Assembly: GCA_035690865.1 (NCBI GenBank)
Contig: DASSKE010000004.1
Span: 67,503 to 131,502 of the forward strand
From: Candidatus Saccharimonadales bacterium
Lineage (GTDB): Bacteria > Patescibacteriota > Saccharimonadia > Saccharimonadales > UBA4665
Reading direction: 5' to 3'
Length of the DNA stretch: 64,000 bases
The notes under the pieces were generated by a model. It saw only the letters and a list, made by a program, of their open reading frames with translations. It was not told the origin of the DNA and did no database searches. The translations under genes and the position numbers were made by a program. Position 1 is the stretch's first letter, and each line of letters starts with the position of its first letter. Positions 57,912 to 64,000 of this stretch are shown piece after piece.

Positions 57912-58898
57912 ATGAAGATTATTGAGCAAAGCTCACTCACCCAGCTCTTGGGAGCCTTTTTTGAGAACCCGCAGGTTGTTGATTTTCGGCTTATCACACA
58001 AGGAAAAGAAAATACTACCATCAAAGTTGATCTGTCCGATGGTCCGATAATTGTCCGTATATGGGGTGAAACGCATGGTTATATGGGTGTACACTCTAAC
58101 GCTGATATTGCCGACGAAGTAGCATTTATGGATTTTTGCCGCCGCAATGGCGCACCTGTGCCGCGGCTCATGCCCGCTAAAGACGGTTCACTTTATCAAA
58201 AAACACCAGACAACTGCTGTTATGCGGTTATGGAATATGTAGATGGCGAAACGCCCCAGAACTTCACCGATGACATGGCCGCGCAGATAGCCAAAACTAT
58301 GGCGCAGATGCATGTGCGCACCGCGGATTTTACTTTTCCGGAGCCGCGCTCTTGGCCTGGCAGTGTGCTTGATATGACCAATGATCGCATTTCAAAGTAT
58401 GAGGCTGGCGAGCTTGCGGTTGATGACGACCAAACCATTACCGAGGCCATTGCACAGTACCGCACACTACTTGCAGCATGCGATCTTTCCGCCCTGCCCA
58501 AGGGTGTTATCCACGGCGATATTATGTGGGAGAATATCAAGTTCAAGAACGGCAAGCTCCATGGCATTTTTGACTTTGGTGACTGTCGCGAGAGCTATTT
58601 TGTAGAAGATATTGCCAAAACATTGTTATTTGTATTTGAGTCGCCCGAGCATTGTGTTTTTGGCCAGAATGGCCACACGGTGCCGGTATTCCTGCAGAAT
58701 TATCAAGCCGTGCGTCAACTTACCAAAGCCGAAGAGCACAGCCTTCCGCTCTTTTATATGAGCCGCTTCTTGTATCAGGTGCTCGGCTATTACATAAAAG
58801 CTGCCAAGGGCAAAACGGAATGTTTGGAATTAGCACGCAGCACAATAGCTCGCTACAACCAGCACCGCGCGTTCTTTATGACAGGTATAGTCGGTTAG
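57912..58898 (+). CDS. Aminoglycoside/homoserine-kinase-type phosphotransferase (APH family)
   Basis: VIHGDIMWENIKF (HxDxxxxN catalytic loop) and IFDFGD (DFG-like). Confidence 0.82.
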   Translation: MKIIEQSSLTQLLGAFFENPQVVDFRLITQGKENTTIKVDLSDGPIIVRIWGETHGYMGVHSNADIADEVAFMDFCRRNGAPVPRLMPAKDGSLYQKTPDNCCYAVMEYVDGETPQNFTDDMAAQIAKTMAQMHVRTADFTFPEPRSWPGSVLDMTNDRISKYEAGELAVDDDQTITEAIAQYRTLLAACDLSALPKGVIHGDIMWENIKFKNGKLHGIFDFGDCRESYFVEDIAKTLLFVFESPEHCVFGQNGHTVPVFLQNYQAVRQLTKAEEHSLPLFYMSRFLYQVLGYYIKAAKGKTECLELARSTIARYNQHRAFFMTGIVG

Positions 58899-59472
58899 CT
58901 TCGATATACGCTCGTGTGGCGTCTGGAATAAGCGACGATTGCCTGCCGGAGCGCAAATGCGTTGAATGCACCCGTTCGCTAACGAAGCCATTTTGCTCAA
59001 AATTGTAATTCATCATAGGAACAGCAGCTTCATCATAGTATGTATAGCGGATAGTTTGCTGTATGTCTGCCGGCAAGGCCGCGACTGCTTTGGTAAGGAG
59101 CTGCGGGGCTATGCCTGGAATAGAAAGCACAATCATAGGCCATTGCTGAGCCAGATGCAAACGCGAAGGGTCCTGTAGGTTATCTATCAAGGAATCAATA
59201 CCGCTAATTTTGAAGTCGGCCCGTATTTTTTGCGCACGCGAGTCCTCTACGGCCACCACTGTACAACTAAACGGCAGTGGCACCGCCTGAACGGCCAGGT
59301 TTGCCATATGGAGCCGGTGCTGCCAACTACTAGCTTGCGGTTTGTGGAGCGGGTGTTTATCAACACATACAATCAGCGCATCAAAGGGTTGGGCTTGATG
59401 AGCGCGGAGGGCCTGGCCGATATGGCCGCCGTGGAGCGGATCAAACGTTCCAATAAGTACAGCAGTTTTCAT
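58876..59472 (-). CDS. Cytidylyltransferase-fold protein, nicotinate/nicotinamide mononucleotide adenylyltransferase-like
   Basis: MKTAVLIGTFDPLHGGHIGQ ((T/H)xGH motif). Start set at the internal Met. The 3' end overlaps the kinase gene by 23 nt. Confidence 0.65.
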   Translation of the reverse strand: MKTAVLIGTFDPLHGGHIGQALRAHQAQPFDALIVCVDKHPLHKPQASSWQHRLHMANLAVQAVPLPFSCTVVAVEDSRAQKIRADFKISGIDSLIDNLQDPSRLHLAQQWPMIVLSIPGIAPQLLTKAVAALPADIQQTIRYTYYDEAAVPMMNYNFEQNGFVSERVHSTHLRSGRQSSLIPDATRAYIEANRLYLS

Positions 59473-59592
59473 AACAGTTCTAGTATACACAACTACCCCT
59501 AAAGGTCCCTTCAGCCAATCTTCAGAAAATGATTGCAAGCCGTTCACTGCTCATGTACAATCGCCCGTAATAAGCTAATGTGAAGGGACGCT

Positions 59593-62500
59593 ATGCAGAG
59601 GTTTTTGCAAAAGGTGGGGGACGCTCTATACCCTGCTTCTAAGCGCACGTTTTTACTACTATCGTGCGCTCTTTTAATATTTTCGGTTTCGCAGATGAGC
59701 ATTCTGCTTTATTTACAGGACAAGGCAGCAGCTCAAACAACTCGCGATCCACTGTCAGCGTTGGCCCAGGGGCGTACCCCGCAACCACTGCCTTCGGCGC
59801 AAAGTCCTAAGACTAAAGCGCTCGATACGGTAAGCCCAGAAGTGCGAGCGCAGGCCAATACTACAAATGTAAGGCCAAGTAAGCCCCAGGCGGGTGACTG
59901 GCAGGGTGCCTCCGAGAATACATCCGAACGAACCGAAAATAGCCGTACCTTTTCGCTCAAGAATGGCACAAAGGTACAGGAATATTACGGTCACGACGTT
60001 GCTTATAAAGATAACGGCACAATGCGCTCAATCTCCCCTTCACTATCTACCGATCAAACGTATGTCGATCATGCTAAGCAGCAACGTTCTTTGCTCCAAA
60101 AGCTCAAGTTCTGGGATCAGCCAAGAGCTTTTAACGGCAGTGGAGGCCCTCTCAAGGCTGGTTTCCAGCCCCTACAAAAAGGCAGCGGCGTTACCGTACA
60201 GTTAAACGGTCAGCGTATTGCAATGCAGCCCGTAGGCTCTAGCGGGAATGTACAGCCCAAACAGCTCAACAATGATGATGGCACTAAAGCTATCAGCTAT
60301 CCAGACGTATGGGATGGCGTTGATCTGGTGTACGAGTATCGGGGTGATACCGTAAAAGAAATGATAGTGTTGCGCAAGCCAACCCGCCAAACAGCTTTTG
60401 ATTTTACAGTAACGGGCGAAAAAGTTCAGCTCAAGCATGGCAAGAACGGCAGTGTTGATGTATGGCAAAACGGCAAGCCAGTATTTACTATCCCCGCCCT
60501 TACGGTGATGGCCACTGAGCGCGGCCCGGTTAGTAACAGCGGGGCAAAATATGTAATTCATGGGAATCACCTGAGCGTGTCACTGAGCGCCTCGTGGCTT
60601 TCTAGGCAAACAACAAAGAATTTTCCTATTACTATTGACCCTACCGTTAGTGTCCATGAGTCGTGGGAGGGCGTAAGCAACAACGGTGCTGATTACTGGA
60701 GTTATAAGAGTGATGGCTACCAGTGCCCCTCCTCAAGTTGCTACCAGAATATCGGCTGGCTTAACGACAATGGTACTAAAAAATGGCAAACTATGATGCG
60801 TATTCCCTTTGACCAAGCCATTAGTAAGGATTTGATTTACGCCCAGTTTAACGTCAAGAAAGTAAGTAATAGCTATGGCTATTATGGCACCGAGTCTGGC
60901 GCTCGCTATTGGGTAACGTGGGCGCCTTGCTTTGGATTTGGCTGCGTAAATGGCGGTGCCCCATGGATTCCCTTCACTATTACCGACCATGGCTGGATTG
61001 ATGTAACGTCACTGATTCAGTGGATGAAAGACCACGGCCAGACGGGTGGATGGCTCATGGTGCATGGTGATGACAGCCCATACAAAGCGCTCAACCCTGG
61101 TAACTCAACATTACAGCTGTACTATAACCGTAAGCCAAACAAGCCAACGCTCAATGCTCCGGGAAACACTACGACAGTAACGACAACAATGCCGCGCCTT
61201 ACTGCAAATACAGCCAGCGATCCGGACGGCGATGCTCTTTCGTACCAGTTTGAACTCTACGATGGCAATACCTTGATTTCCTCAAGTCCAACCTCTGCAT
61301 TAAATTTTTGGACTATTCCTGATGACATGCTCCAAGACGGCGGTACCTATCGCTGGCGGGTCGGGGTAAAGGACCAATGGGCCTGGACCTACAGCGACCT
61401 GGCAAGCTTTACCGTAGATATGCGCAGCGGCAATAAAGACAAAACGCAAGCATACGATCAGCTAGGCAACATTAGCACTAATCTGGCGAATGGTAATGCT
61501 TATACATCTGTGCAAAGTCACAATATTGATGCTTTAGGTGGTGATATCGGCCTGAACCTGGATTACAATTCACCTAAAATAGGTCAGCAGGGTCTTAGCG
61601 CTACATACTACAACGATGCTGGCGGCCGGAAGGAAGTGCTCAAGCGCACCGATCCTAATATTGAGTTTAACTGGGCGGGGAGTTCTCCGGCACCGGGTGT
61701 CGTTGACCAAGACAATTTCGCCGTTAAATGGGAAGGATATTTTATCGCCCCCAAGACCGGCACATATCAGTTTGGCGCTACCAATGACGATAAAATGAGT
61801 GCGAGTATTGACACCAATGGTGATGGTTCGTATGAAATGCTTTTTGACTACGGTTGTTGTCAGGCGCAAAAATGGTCCACCTCGACGGTTCAGCTGGAAG
61901 AGGGTAAAGCCTACCCGGTTCGAGCCTGGCTCTTAGAAGCTACCGGCAGTGCGTACGCAGAATTATGGGTTAAGGCACCGGGCCGCCTTGGTCAAATCGT
62001 GCCACAATCCTGGCTCCGTACACTTGATTTAGGTAAGGCAGTTGACGACAAGCAAGGCCTGCATGCGGAATTCTACAAAGACTACGACGGTTCGCGTACC
62101 TTTAAAGCTGGCCAGCAGCCCTACCTTGTTAAGAACTATAGCGAACTCAATTTATACTGGGGCACGGGATCTTCGGTAGAATATGATCCGGATGGCGACT
62201 ATAAAGATAACTTTTTAGGACGATTTAGCGGGTATATCACCATCCCTACAACCGGTGACTATACATTTGGCGTTGGTGCCGATGATGGTAAACGCCTGTT
62301 TATAAATGGCTCCAAAGTTGCTGAACAATGGAGTACGCTCGACCAGGCCTGGAGTGGCACATTACACTTCAATGCTGGTGATACCGTACCGGTTGTTGTT
62401 GAATACTACGAAGCCGGCGGATCGGCGGCCGTGCAGCTCAAATGGAACGGTCCGGCGGGTGCGGGCATTATTCCCGGTCAATATTTGAGCACAAGTTATC

Positions 62501-64000
62501 GTAACCTGCCTGCTGGGTGGGACCTGAGTGTGGACGCTTCTGGAACTATACAATATGAACGATTGCGTGTTCTTTCTGGGGGAAACGTGGCGTTGGTTGC
62601 CGGCAATGGAACGCAATATGTGTACACTGCGCAAGGCGGCGGGTATAATCCACCTACTGGCCAAGACGGCGTACTCTCTAAGAACAGCGACGGTAGCTTT
62701 ACACTCCAGGATGTGAGCGGCCAGGTATATGAATTTGATGTCCGTGGCGTACTTACGCGGGTGACCTCGCCAACCGACGATCGAAGTCCAGCTGCCTTGC
62801 GCTATGAATACCAGGACCAATCTGGCGTCCCTCGCATCAAAAAGATAGTTGATGGCCTCGATAGTGAGCGTTATGGTGAACTCTTTTATGGCGGCGACAG
62901 CCAGTGTCAGACCGACCAAGGCTTTAGCCCCGCGCCAGCTGGTTTCCTGTGTGCCTTTAAGACCTATGACGGCCAAATAACCTCGCTCCAGTATAACAAT
63001 GACAAACTATCACGTATTGTACGGCCCGGAGCTGAAATTACCGATCTCGGCAATGACAGCGATGGACGTTTGATTTCGATTCGCGATTCGCTAGCCAATG
63101 ACGCCATAGCCGCAGGCACACGCACCAATACGGATGAGCTTCTTACACAAATAACCTACGACCAACTTGGCCGCGTCAAAACAGTTAAATCCCCTGCTCC
63201 ACAGCCTGGTGAATGGCGGACTGAACACAGTGTGGATTATGGTTTCACAAGTACAAAACAACACATTGTAGGCGCGCCTGAGCCCAAGGGCTACTCGCAA
63301 TATATAGAGTACGATGACAAAGGTCGCACAACTAAAAGTTGTGGTGTTGAGGCATTGTGTACTGTCCAGGAATGGTATCCGTATAAAGATCTACTACTAA
63401 GCACCACTGATGCTCAGGGACTTAAGACGGTAACAATGTACGACGAAGAAGACCGCCCCGTAAGCAGCTATGGACCTGCTCCGCAGGACTGGTTCGATAG
63501 TTGGGATTGGACGTTGCCAGCCGGTATGAAGTTGCTGCGAGGCCAGTATATTAAGTCACCGGACGGTCGGTTTACTTTTACTTATCAAACAAATGGCAAC
63601 TTAGTGGTCCGAGAGGTTGCGAGCAATACACCAATTTGGTACACAAGTACCGATGGTAAGGCATCGGACCGCCTAGTGATGCAGGGCGATGGCAATCTCG
63701 TGCTGTACAACGGAAGTAGTGCCGTATGGGACACGCACACCGGGGGCCAAGGTGACTCAACGAGCTTTTTGTCAGTCCAAAATGACGGCAACCTGGTTAT
63801 ACGTATGCAGCGCCTCGATGGGTCTACGCCCGCCAAGTGGGCTAGCGGTGTCACGCGCACCTATGGCCAATATCTGTCTGCTACATATAACAAGCCTAAG
63901 GCGGGCTATGAGTCGCAAATGCTCCGTAGCGACTCAGCTTACGACGAAGGCATCTATGGCGCTGCTGTCGAATGGTACAATTTTAAAGACGGCAAGCTGT
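59593..64000 (+). CDS. Giant membrane-anchored RHS/YD-repeat protein with PA14 and bulb-type lectin domains (3' truncated by window edge)
   Basis: Hand-translated ORF, open from ATG 59593 to the window end and absent from the ORF track because it has no stop. Contains an N-terminal TM anchor and two complete PA14-like modules (ATYYND...DNFAVKWEGYFIAPKTGTYQFGATNDD; AEFYKDY...FLGRFSGYITIPTTGDYTFGVGADDG). YD repeats include ITYDQLGRVKTV, YDDKGRTTKS and MYDEEDRPVSSY. The bulb-lectin triplet is TNGNLVV / QGDGNLVLY / QNDGNLVI. Confidence 0.85.
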   Translation, partial: MQRFLQKVGDALYPASKRTFLLLSCALLIFSVSQMSILLYLQDKAAAQTTRDPLSALAQGRTPQPLPSAQSPKTKALDTVSPEVRAQANTTNVRPSKPQAGDWQGASENTSERTENSRTFSLKNGTKVQEYYGHDVAYKDNGTMRSISPSLSTDQTYVDHAKQQRSLLQKLKFWDQPRAFNGSGGPLKAGFQPLQKGSGVTVQLNGQRIAMQPVGSSGNVQPKQLNNDDGTKAISYPDVWDGVDLVYEYRGDTVKEMIVLRKPTRQTAFDFTVTGEKVQLKHGKNGSVDVWQNGKPVFTIPALTVMATERGPVSNSGAKYVIHGNHLSVSLSASWLSRQTTKNFPITIDPTVSVHESWEGVSNNGADYWSYKSDGYQCPSSSCYQNIGWLNDNGTKKWQTMMRIPFDQAISKDLIYAQFNVKKVSNSYGYYGTESGARYWVTWAPCFGFGCVNGGAPWIPFTITDHGWIDVTSLIQWMKDHGQTGGWLMVHGDDSPYKALNPGNSTLQLYYNRKPNKPTLNAPGNTTTVTTTMPRLTANTASDPDGDALSYQFELYDGNTLISSSPTSALNFWTIPDDMLQDGGTYRWRVGVKDQWAWTYSDLASFTVDMRSGNKDKTQAYDQLGNISTNLANGNAYTSVQSHNIDALGGDIGLNLDYNSPKIGQQGLSATYYNDAGGRKEVLKRTDPNIEFNWAGSSPAPGVVDQDNFAVKWEGYFIAPKTGTYQFGATNDDKMSASIDTNGDGSYEMLFDYGCCQAQKWSTSTVQLEEGKAYPVRAWLLEATGSAYAELWVKAPGRLGQIVPQSWLRTLDLGKAVDDKQGLHAEFYKDYDGSRTFKAGQQPYLVKNYSELNLYWGTGSSVEYDPDGDYKDNFLGRFSGYITIPTTGDYTFGVGADDGKRLFINGSKVAEQWSTLDQAWSGTLHFNAGDTVPVVVEYYEAGGSAAVQLKWNGPAGAGIIPGQYLSTSYRNLPAGWDLSVDASGTIQYERLRVLSGGNVALVAGNGTQYVYTAQGGGYNPPTGQDGVLSKNSDGSFTLQDVSGQVYEFDVRGVLTRVTSPTDDRSPAALRYEYQDQSGVPRIKKIVDGLDSERYGELFYGGDSQCQTDQGFSPAPAGFLCAFKTYDGQITSLQYNNDKLSRIVRPGAEITDLGNDSDGRLISIRDSLANDAIAAGTRTNTDELLTQITYDQLGRVKTVKSPAPQPGEWRTEHSVDYGFTSTKQHIVGAPEPKGYSQYIEYDDKGRTTKSCGVEALCTVQEWYPYKDLLLSTTDAQGLKTVTMYDEEDRPVSSYGPAPQDWFDSWDWTLPAGMKLLRGQYIKSPDGRFTFTYQTNGNLVVREVASNTPIWYTSTDGKASDRLVMQGDGNLVLYNGSSAVWDTHTGGQGDSTSFLSVQNDGNLVIRMQRLDGSTPAKWASGVTRTYGQYLSATYNKPKAGYESQMLRSDSAYDEGIYGAAVEWYNFKDGKL

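Follow-up and report, generated by a model that had tools for sequence, protein, structure and literature searches.

A predicted RHS polymorphic toxin with PA14 and lectin modules and a candidate CdiI-type immunity gene in a Saccharibacteria genome

This study examined a gene for a predicted RHS polymorphic toxin in the genome of a Candidatus Saccharimonadales bacterium (assembly GCA_035690865.1; 1.19 Mb in five contigs, guanine-cytosine (GC) content approximately 50%, completeness 98.6%). The gene begins within a stretch of 64,000 nucleotides, hereafter the window, which corresponds to C4:67503-131502 (C4 denoting contig DASSKE010000004.1). An ATG at window position 59593, preceded by a Shine-Dalgarno-like GAAGGGA stretch, opens a frame on the forward strand in which no stop codon occurs through 1,469 codons up to the window edge (59593..64000, +). 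An original prediction, made from the letters of the window, had described this frame as part of a giant surface protein, and the open reading frame (ORF) proved to be real. Reading of the contig revealed that it extends to a stop codon at C4:134417 (window-equivalent end 66915), giving a full gene of 2,440 codons (C4:127095-134417; L003:95-7417 in the numbering of the extracted locus) and a protein labelled P0002. Neither an early stop codon nor a frameshift that would deprive the protein of a core or toxin occurs; the ORF is intact to 2,440 aa.

We used Pfam and NCBIfam models to search the whole protein and ten separate segments of it. Two complete PA14 modules were identified, PA14-1 at residues 665-788 (61585..61956, +; PF07691 59.7 bits, cutoff 24; GLEYA 41.3 bits) and PA14-2 at residues 820-961 (62050..62475, +; PF07691 73.6 bits), almost exactly where the original prediction had placed them (approximately 61590-62010 and 62060-62480). 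The beginning of a further PA14 segment, which had been suspected at the end of the window, belongs to PA14-3 (residues 1457-1596; PF07691 48.2 bits). This module lies between two YD regions, begins at AAVEWYNFKDGKL (residues 1457-1469; 63961..64000, +), and crosses the window edge to approximately residue 1596 (L003:4463-4882, +). A homolog search of 5.8 billion proteins returned 495 matches, and all counts given below out of 120 refer to the best 120 of these; PA14-3 was present in 119 of them.

A B-lectin domain of the monocot mannose-binding lectin fold (beta-prism II) was found at residues 1308-1416 (63514..63840, +) through Pfam, NCBIfam, and PDB matches. PF01453 scored 24.1 bits in the whole protein versus 34.4 bits when the segment was searched alone (cutoff 32.4). 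The domain also matched the NCBIfam putidacin L1 model (E 1.9e-17) and, in the PDB, pyocin L1 (E 1.2e-21), putidacin L1 (E 2.9e-18), and many plant lectins of the snowdrop-lectin type. It carries three motifs, QTNGNLVVR, QGDGNLVLY, and QNDGNLVIR, the second of which is a canonical QxDxNxVxY and the first and third near-canonical; these account for the three-fold NGNLV/DGNLV/DGNLV bulb lectin that had been proposed at 63541-63810. The PA14, B-lectin, and RHS assignments thus all passed the domain searches, and the PA14, YD, and lectin coordinates originally given were right within a few tens of bases. These domain assignments suggest that the PA14 and lectin modules bind glycans in the wall of a neighbouring cell, and the initial idea of an adhesin or toxin that targets glycans on another cell is plausible.

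The N-terminal part of the YD/RHS shell occupies residues 966-1303 (62488..63501, +), where YD repeats had been proposed at approximately 62500-63470. It contains an RHS_repeat match at residues 1266-1292 (23.7 bits, cutoff 22), is modelled as beta-hairpin, and is conserved in all 120 homologs. The C-terminal YD shell and the RHS-associated core lie beyond the window (residues 1601-2252; L003:4895-6850, +) and were recognized by Pfam and NCBIfam. PF05593 scored 39.0 bits (cutoff 22), with four stretches in residues 1591-2260 in addition to the one at 1266-1292; the YD-repeat model TIGR01643 scored 31 bits (cutoff 15.8), and YD_repeat_2x exceeded its curated cutoff. The RHS core end that had been expected beyond the window was found at residues 2187-2253 (TIGR03696, 36.1 bits, cutoff 32.5). 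Its terminal motif reads DPIEGG ... DYSG, and D2228, P2229, D2243, P2244, D2249, and G2252 are each conserved in at least 90% of 49 aligned sequences. D2228 and D2249, the aspartates of the self-cleaving motif, are 21 residues apart, compared with a spacing of 22 in the Tse15 cleavage mutant D1369N/D1391N.

An AlphaFold model of residues 1060-2259 had a predicted local distance difference test (pLDDT) score of 87.4 and a predicted template modelling score of 0.79. Searched with Foldseek, the shell model matched the Salmonella bongori Rhs core (8QJC, E 2.5e-34) and further matched RhsA, Tse15, Tse5, RhsP, TcB-TcC, and teneurins, with 7Q97, 8UY4, 6H6E, and 4IGL among the entries; the lectin part of the model matched pyocin L1 separately. 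Residues 1060-2259 are therefore predicted to form a beta-cocoon fold. The two YD regions sum to approximately 990 aa, roughly one cocoon, which, together with the sequence order, indicates that the lectin and PA14-3 constitute an insertion within the shell-forming region. The same sequence order and summed length suggest that the lectin and PA14-3 project outward from the cocoon.

The tail that follows the core comprises 188 aa (residues 2253-2440). By hydropathy and composition, it consists of a hydrophobic leader (residues 2253-2295), a linker rich in Gly, Ser, and Pro, and also in Arg and Lys (residues 2296-2360; leader and linker together L003:6851-7174, +), and a toxin tip. The maximal Kyte-Doolittle 19-mer score of the leader is 2.55 versus a maximum of 1.23 across residues 81-2252. 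A hydrophobic stretch also occurs within the first 70 tail residues of 52 of the 78 homologs in which the core motif was located. The position and conservation of the leader suggest a role in membrane crossing. A match to the YxzE 'bacteriocin' model at residues 2275-2327 reached 25 bits, short of its cutoff of 40; it was attributed to the composition of the hydrophobic, Gly-rich stretch and rejected.

The original prediction had expected a toxin tip beyond the window, and the polymorphic tail indeed ends in a putative RNase of the Ntox21 / CdiA-CT(ECL) type (residues 2374-2439; L003:7214-7411, +). Ntox21 (PF15526) scored 26.0 bits (cutoff 25) when the tail was scanned alone, and the tip matched CdiA-CT of Enterobacter cloacae (4NTQ_A) with an E value of 1.3e-9. 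In this alignment, D203, D205, H207, and K214 of 4NTQ_A correspond to the identical residues D2404, D2406, H2408, and K2415. As summarized in a review (PMC9086364, which relays Beck et al. 2014), D203, D205, H207, and K214 form the active site of the ECL CdiA-CT, which cuts 16S rRNA between A1493 and G1494 in the manner of colicin E3. By analogy, the tip is expected to cleave 16S rRNA at A1493/G1494.

A small downstream immunity ORF had likewise been predicted, and an ORF of 146 aa (L003:7424-7864; C4:134424-134864, +) begins 6 bases past the double stop codon of the toxin gene. It belongs to the CdiI_N family (PF18228, 51.6 bits, cutoff 25) and, over residues 25-144, matched 4NTQ_B, the cognate immunity protein of the 4NTQ_A toxin (E 0.0047). 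We compared this arrangement with those of other family members. Two distant homologs with Ntox21 tips, P0003 (overall identity 69%) and P0103 (35%), have a CdiI_N gene directly downstream, in the same position (loci L004 and L005; product length 143 or 147 aa), whereas P0006, which has a different tip, is followed by an unrelated ORF of 106 aa and not by CdiI_N. The immunity orthologs are 39% and 32% identical, versus approximately 70% and 49% for the tips. The immunity proteins thus diverge more than the tips, the pattern expected for toxin-immunity pairs that diversify together. Past the RHS and CdiI_N genes of L005, an additional gene (L005:11788-13974) encodes a 728-aa protein with PA14, GLEYA, and DUF1349 domains and is accompanied by a 143-aa ORF; that locus may thus contain another glycan-binding toxin module.

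The N-terminus contains a hydrophobic segment at residues 19-41 (59647..59715, +), with Lys/Arg before it, KAAAQ after it, and a maximal Kyte-Doolittle 19-mer score of 2.22; most homologs possess a comparable segment. The original prediction had called it a transmembrane anchor. The hydrophobic segment is present, and it may serve as a signal anchor or else as a signal peptide of the Sec type, which leaves the description as a giant surface protein uncertain. Residues approximately 100-510 form a conserved all-beta region (59890..61122, +) with a weak DUF7948 match and near-invariant Cys378, Cys383, and Cys451. The Cys-containing domain that had been noticed in this region (residues approximately 351-510) is kept in 114 of the 120 homologs and matches no Pfam family. 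A PKD/immunoglobulin (Ig)-like beta-sandwich follows at residues 517-607 (61141..61413, +), its best match being K319L-like_PKD at 21.9 bits, under the Pfam cutoff of 27. This module had been read as FN3-like; the beta-sandwich appears in the AlphaFold model, and the family matches, of the PKD/Ig-like kind, all remain below cutoff. The model of residues 91-650, built from an alignment of 48-49 sequences, shows a chain of beta-sandwiches with a pLDDT of 87.5. A Foldseek search with this N-terminal model returned generic Ig/FN3 arrays only, at template modelling scores of approximately 0.15, so that the N-terminal domains could not be named.

The combination of PA14, RHS, and lectin is not unusual. 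The best 120 homologs are all 2,000-2,800 aa in length, and module-by-module BLAST revealed the N-terminal region, PKD, PA14-1, PA14-2, both YD regions, and PA14-3 each in 114-120 of them. The lectin occurs in 29 of the 120, at a constant position. A large family thus has this combination as its standard body plan, the lectin being an optional cassette. Those homologs that bear a name are called 'PA14 domain-containing protein [Candidatus Saccharimonadales]' or 'RHS repeat-associated protein'. Sequence identity with the query holds up to the DYSG motif, and the Ntox21-type tip recurs in 4 of the 120; other homologs end in Tox-REase-7 or -9, barnase, HNH, GIY-YIG, or colicin-E5-type tips.

We next considered how widely the family is distributed. 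A match was found in 12 of 121 sampled genomes of the class, representing 10 of 85 genera; the four genomes sampled from the query's own taxonomic family all lacked one. These results indicate an accessory family with a patchy distribution. A scan of genome contigs with the single protein returned no relatives, whereas an alignment-based scan did find them; with one genome per species, it yielded 454 relatives, the best of which were Saccharibacteria metagenome-assembled genomes (MAGs). Relatives at 31-40% identity were found in many Actinomycetota, with Amycolatopsis, Lentzea, Kutzneria, Saccharothrix, Cellulomonas, and Nocardia among them. These Actinomycetota proteins (L033-L086; the Saccharibacteria loci are L007-L030) are approximately 2,100 aa long and have the same module order, including the PA14 module embedded between the YD regions. 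A hydrophobic leader is present in 24 of 38 Actinomycetota tails, and several of the others are Arg/His-rich. In the tails of L034, L057, L058, L062, and L064, an Arg/His-rich polycationic stretch replaces the hydrophobic leader (e.g., DRRHRVVRHRYTRHVRARYH); this stretch may be an alternative membrane-crossing leader.

A FastTree phylogeny of the C-terminal shell region separated two clades with 100% local support. One comprises 47 Actinomycetota rows; the other, which includes the query, comprises 26 rows that are Saccharimonadota or unlabelled apart from four. This placement and the homolog names are in agreement with an assignment of the genome to Saccharimonadia. Among these four, L009 (Nevskiaceae MAG, GC 0.51) and L024 (Burkholderiales MAG, GC 0.46) have the lower GC and look like misbinned Saccharibacteria contigs. 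The two with high GC, L017 (Streptomyces sp. NPDC047072, GC 0.63) and L027 (Actinomycetota MAG, GC 0.70), could be real transfers into Actinomycetota. A further member with the B-lectin cassette, 46% identical to the query, was found in Arcanobacterium pluranimalium DSM 13483 (L031), an animal-associated actinobacterial isolate represented by a 2.1-Mb contig. The lectin insertion is thus not confined to Saccharibacteria.

The genome itself was searched for further RHS loci by tblastn and ORF reading, which revealed at least three family copies and an orphan core/tip cassette. Two further full-length copies run off contig ends (C2:239874-245702, +; C3:6699-1, -). At C4:255953-255129 (-) lies a C-terminal fragment that has a different tip and precedes a 142-aa ORF, and at C4:254348-253782 (-) the orphan core-plus-tip cassette, which precedes a 153-aa ORF; the fragment and cassette region as a whole spans C4:255953-253333 (-). 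No Pfam family was found for the other three tips in the genome or for their putative immunity ORFs. Finally, an RHS core end at C5:313751-313506 (-), within a region spanning C5:313751-312905 (-), stops right after DYSGN without a tip and may represent a remnant, a gene that has been split, or an RHS that lacks a tip; a gene for a 194-aa protein with about four transmembrane segments starts 20 nt past it. The full-length PA14-RHS paralogs probably break the assembly. An exact contig-end overlap test intended to rejoin the split paralogs found no overlap at the RHS ends. An identical 38-nt repeat at assembly breakpoints, unrelated to the RHS genes, occurs at the start of both C4 and C5 and, in reverse complement, at that of both C1 and C2. 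The three 7-kb RHS genes amount to about 2% of the 1.19-Mb genome.

Two genes upstream of the RHS gene in the window were named by sequence reading. The first (57912-58898, +) resembles an aminoglycoside or homoserine kinase-like phosphotransferase, and the second (58876-59547, -), divergent from the RHS gene, a nicotinate-nucleotide adenylyltransferase.

Among known systems, WapA of Bacillus subtilis, reportedly described by Koskiniemi et al. 2013, is a Sec-dependent RHS polymorphic toxin of a monoderm bacterium. The query shares with WapA of B. subtilis and of Streptococcus suis (PMC12704120) an N-terminal export signal in place of type VI secretion system (T6SS) adaptors, a YD/RHS shell that includes an RHS-associated core, a C-terminus ending in a polymorphic tip of the RNase kind, an immunity gene immediately after the toxin gene, and a producer that has no outer membrane. 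The two differ in that Pfam detected no WapA-type wall-binding repeats in the query, which instead has a beta-sandwich stalk, three PA14 modules, and an optional B-lectin. In addition, the tail of the query opens with a hydrophobic stretch, and its host is a 1.2-Mb bacterium of the candidate phyla radiation. The Sec-type N-terminus, which lacks PAAR, VgrG, and two-partner secretion (TPS) domains, together with the envelope type, makes B. subtilis WapA the closest functional analogue. By this analogy the query may work like WapA without being demonstrably orthologous to it.

The tip and immunity modules resemble those of the CdiA-CT/CdiI pair of Enterobacter cloacae ATCC 13047 (4NTQ), with the same Ntox21 tip family, identical D, D, H, and K residues, and the same CdiI_N immunity family; approximately 55 residues of the two tips can be aligned. 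E. cloacae CdiA is delivered through CdiB/CdiA two-partner secretion and has a CdiA entry domain, whereas the query has an RHS cocoon and a predicted Sec export route. A CdiA/CdiB system of contact-dependent growth inhibition (CDI) was therefore rejected: Pfam and NCBIfam found no match to a TPS domain, filamentous haemagglutinin repeats, or a CdiB partner in the protein, and the tip and immunity modules alone are common to both. A T6SS Rhs effector was likewise rejected, as the same databases gave no PAAR, VgrG, or prePAAR match and the N-terminus is a hydrophobic export segment.

The query nevertheless resembles the T6SS Rhs effectors (RhsA, Tse5, Tse15, and S. bongori Rhs) and TcB-TcC in its cocoon fold (Foldseek E 1e-34 to 1e-26), in a C-terminal aspartyl self-cleavage motif with two Asp approximately 21-23 residues apart, and, as judged from model and sequence, in an encapsulated toxin. 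Unlike these systems, it has no TcA partner and none of the T6SS adaptors, appears to be exported through Sec, and has glycan-binding modules inserted; its hydrophobic segment follows the core, whereas that of the T6SS Rhs effectors is N-terminal. The nearest sequence relatives of its lectin are pyocin L1 and putidacin L1/LlpA, with which it shares the QxDxNxVxY motif. In these lectin-like bacteriocins, the lectin docks a killing protein on a surface sugar of the target, as it may in the query. The bacteriocins contain tandem B-lectins and kill through BamA, whereas the query has a single B-lectin in a 2,440-aa RHS protein with a putative rRNase tip.

A similar architecture has been noted previously. 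In one sentence, Starr et al. 2018 (PMC6031116) mention a 2,487-aa 'possible secreted toxin' of Candidatus Teamsevenus rhizospherense with RHS, YD, PA14, and polymorphic-toxin domains and an adjacent immunity gene. Its source falls in the same phylum-level group as the query, and the protein resembles the query in size, in its RHS/YD, PA14, and toxin domains, and in the neighbouring immunity gene; the authors give no lectin, tip identity, family survey, or mechanism (PMC6031116). In the literature searched, we found no paper that characterizes the family or identifies an Ntox21/CdiI pair in Saccharibacteria, and none that describes the lectin cassette, the post-core leader, or the Actinomycetota sister clade of the family.

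Taken together, these results make it highly probable that the gene product is a WapA-like RHS polymorphic toxin, exported through Sec, that has an Ntox21 RNase tip and is paired with a CdiI-type immunity protein. In RHS polymorphic toxins, a cocoon encloses the unfolded tip, the protein cleaves itself where the core ends, and a cognate immunity protein is present (PMC8636562, PMC4436062). On this pattern, the protein would be exported and either retained on the cell surface or released, and its PA14 and lectin modules would dock on the wall glycans of a neighbouring cell. The tail, unfolded within the cocoon, would be cut after DYSG (approximately residue 2252) and set free, and the hydrophobic leader would aid its passage through the cytoplasmic membrane of the target. 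The RNase would then cut the decoding site of 16S rRNA (A1493/G1494, Escherichia coli numbering) and halt translation, while the immunity protein would shield the producer and its clonemates.

Several observations weigh against this interpretation. The N-terminal hydrophobic stretch (approximately 21-23 residues) is long for a cleaved signal peptide, and no wall-anchoring domain was detected in the protein, so that retention on the surface is not established. The Ntox21 score barely exceeds its cutoff (26 versus 25), and the match of the immunity ORF to 4NTQ_B is weak on its own.

The tips are highly polymorphic and each has its own immunity gene, which favours rival Saccharibacteria or other monoderm neighbours in the same niche as targets; competitors of this kind are most likely the cells at which the toxin is directed. 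As a tentative extension, it is possible that the PA14-RHS family, common to Saccharibacteria and Actinomycetota, is a self-contained toxin-delivery device for bacteria that lack an outer membrane. Interchangeable lectin and PA14 modules would select the target by its wall glycans, and a post-core hydrophobic leader, or an Arg/His-rich one in certain actinobacterial members, would carry the tip across the membrane without T6SS, type VII secretion system, or CDI machinery. Such a device would serve in an arms race between epibiont and host or between epibionts.

The toxin could instead be a weapon or tool used chiefly against the actinobacterial host, its lectin and PA14 modules recognizing host wall glycans (e.g., mannans or rhamnose-containing polymers), its rRNase weakening or killing the host for nutrients, and its immunity protein guarding only against self-poisoning. 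Cultivated Saccharibacteria live on Actinomycetota (PMC10633639), and the nearest relatives of the architecture outside the candidate phyla radiation occur in that phylum, so the delivery parts suit such an envelope. The decoding site of 16S rRNA is universal, and the lectin is most closely related to bacteriocins that attach to sugars of the cell surface. However, such extremely polymorphic tips, with immunity genes to match and with orphan cassettes, bear the mark of competition between close relatives and not of a fixed interaction with a host. The family is also absent from approximately 90% of the sampled class genomes, including all four from the same family, and is thus not a core epibiotic requirement, and killing an obligate host would be costly. 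We consider a weapon aimed mainly at the host unlikely, but a serious alternative.

The protein might also be mainly an adhesin, with the stalk, three PA14 modules, and lectin fastening the cell to glycans of its partner, the RHS shell playing a structural part as in teneurins, and the tip being secondary. Four modules of carbohydrate-binding type on a long beta-rich stalk are consistent with such a role, teneurins use the same shell for adhesion (as the Foldseek matches recall), and a model Saccharibacterium requires several glycan-binding surface proteins in order to grow as an epibiont (PMC10633639). Nevertheless, the catalytic residues, the self-cleavage motif, and the cognate immunity gene are intact and covary across homologs; the tips are swapped while the remainder is conserved, which is sensible only if the tip is used; and the distribution is patchy. 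A primarily adhesive function thus appears very improbable. A relic gene, decaying or silent and without present function, is scarcely credible, for although the paralog at C5:313751-313506 ends straight after the core motif without a tip, the gene itself retains an uninterrupted 7.3-kb ORF in a streamlined 1.19-Mb genome, every motif is conserved, and it is tightly coupled to an intact immunity gene.

The Sec-exported toxin proposed here has good support, yet it is an ordinary member of a widespread family, the architecture of which was noted previously and which public annotations name. Given that RHS polymorphic toxins are well known, the discovery is incremental. The family nonetheless offers a testable toxin-immunity pair, namely a predicted colicin-E3-like rRNase and a CdiI-type antidote, and its defined putative glycan-binding modules may reveal which surface sugars Saccharibacteria recognize. 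The Actinomycetota sister clade and the recurrent post-core hydrophobic leader provide leads on how toxins may cross monoderm envelopes. Finally, the share of a tiny genome spent on RHS toxins, approximately 2%, suggests that interbacterial antagonism matters even for obligate epibionts.

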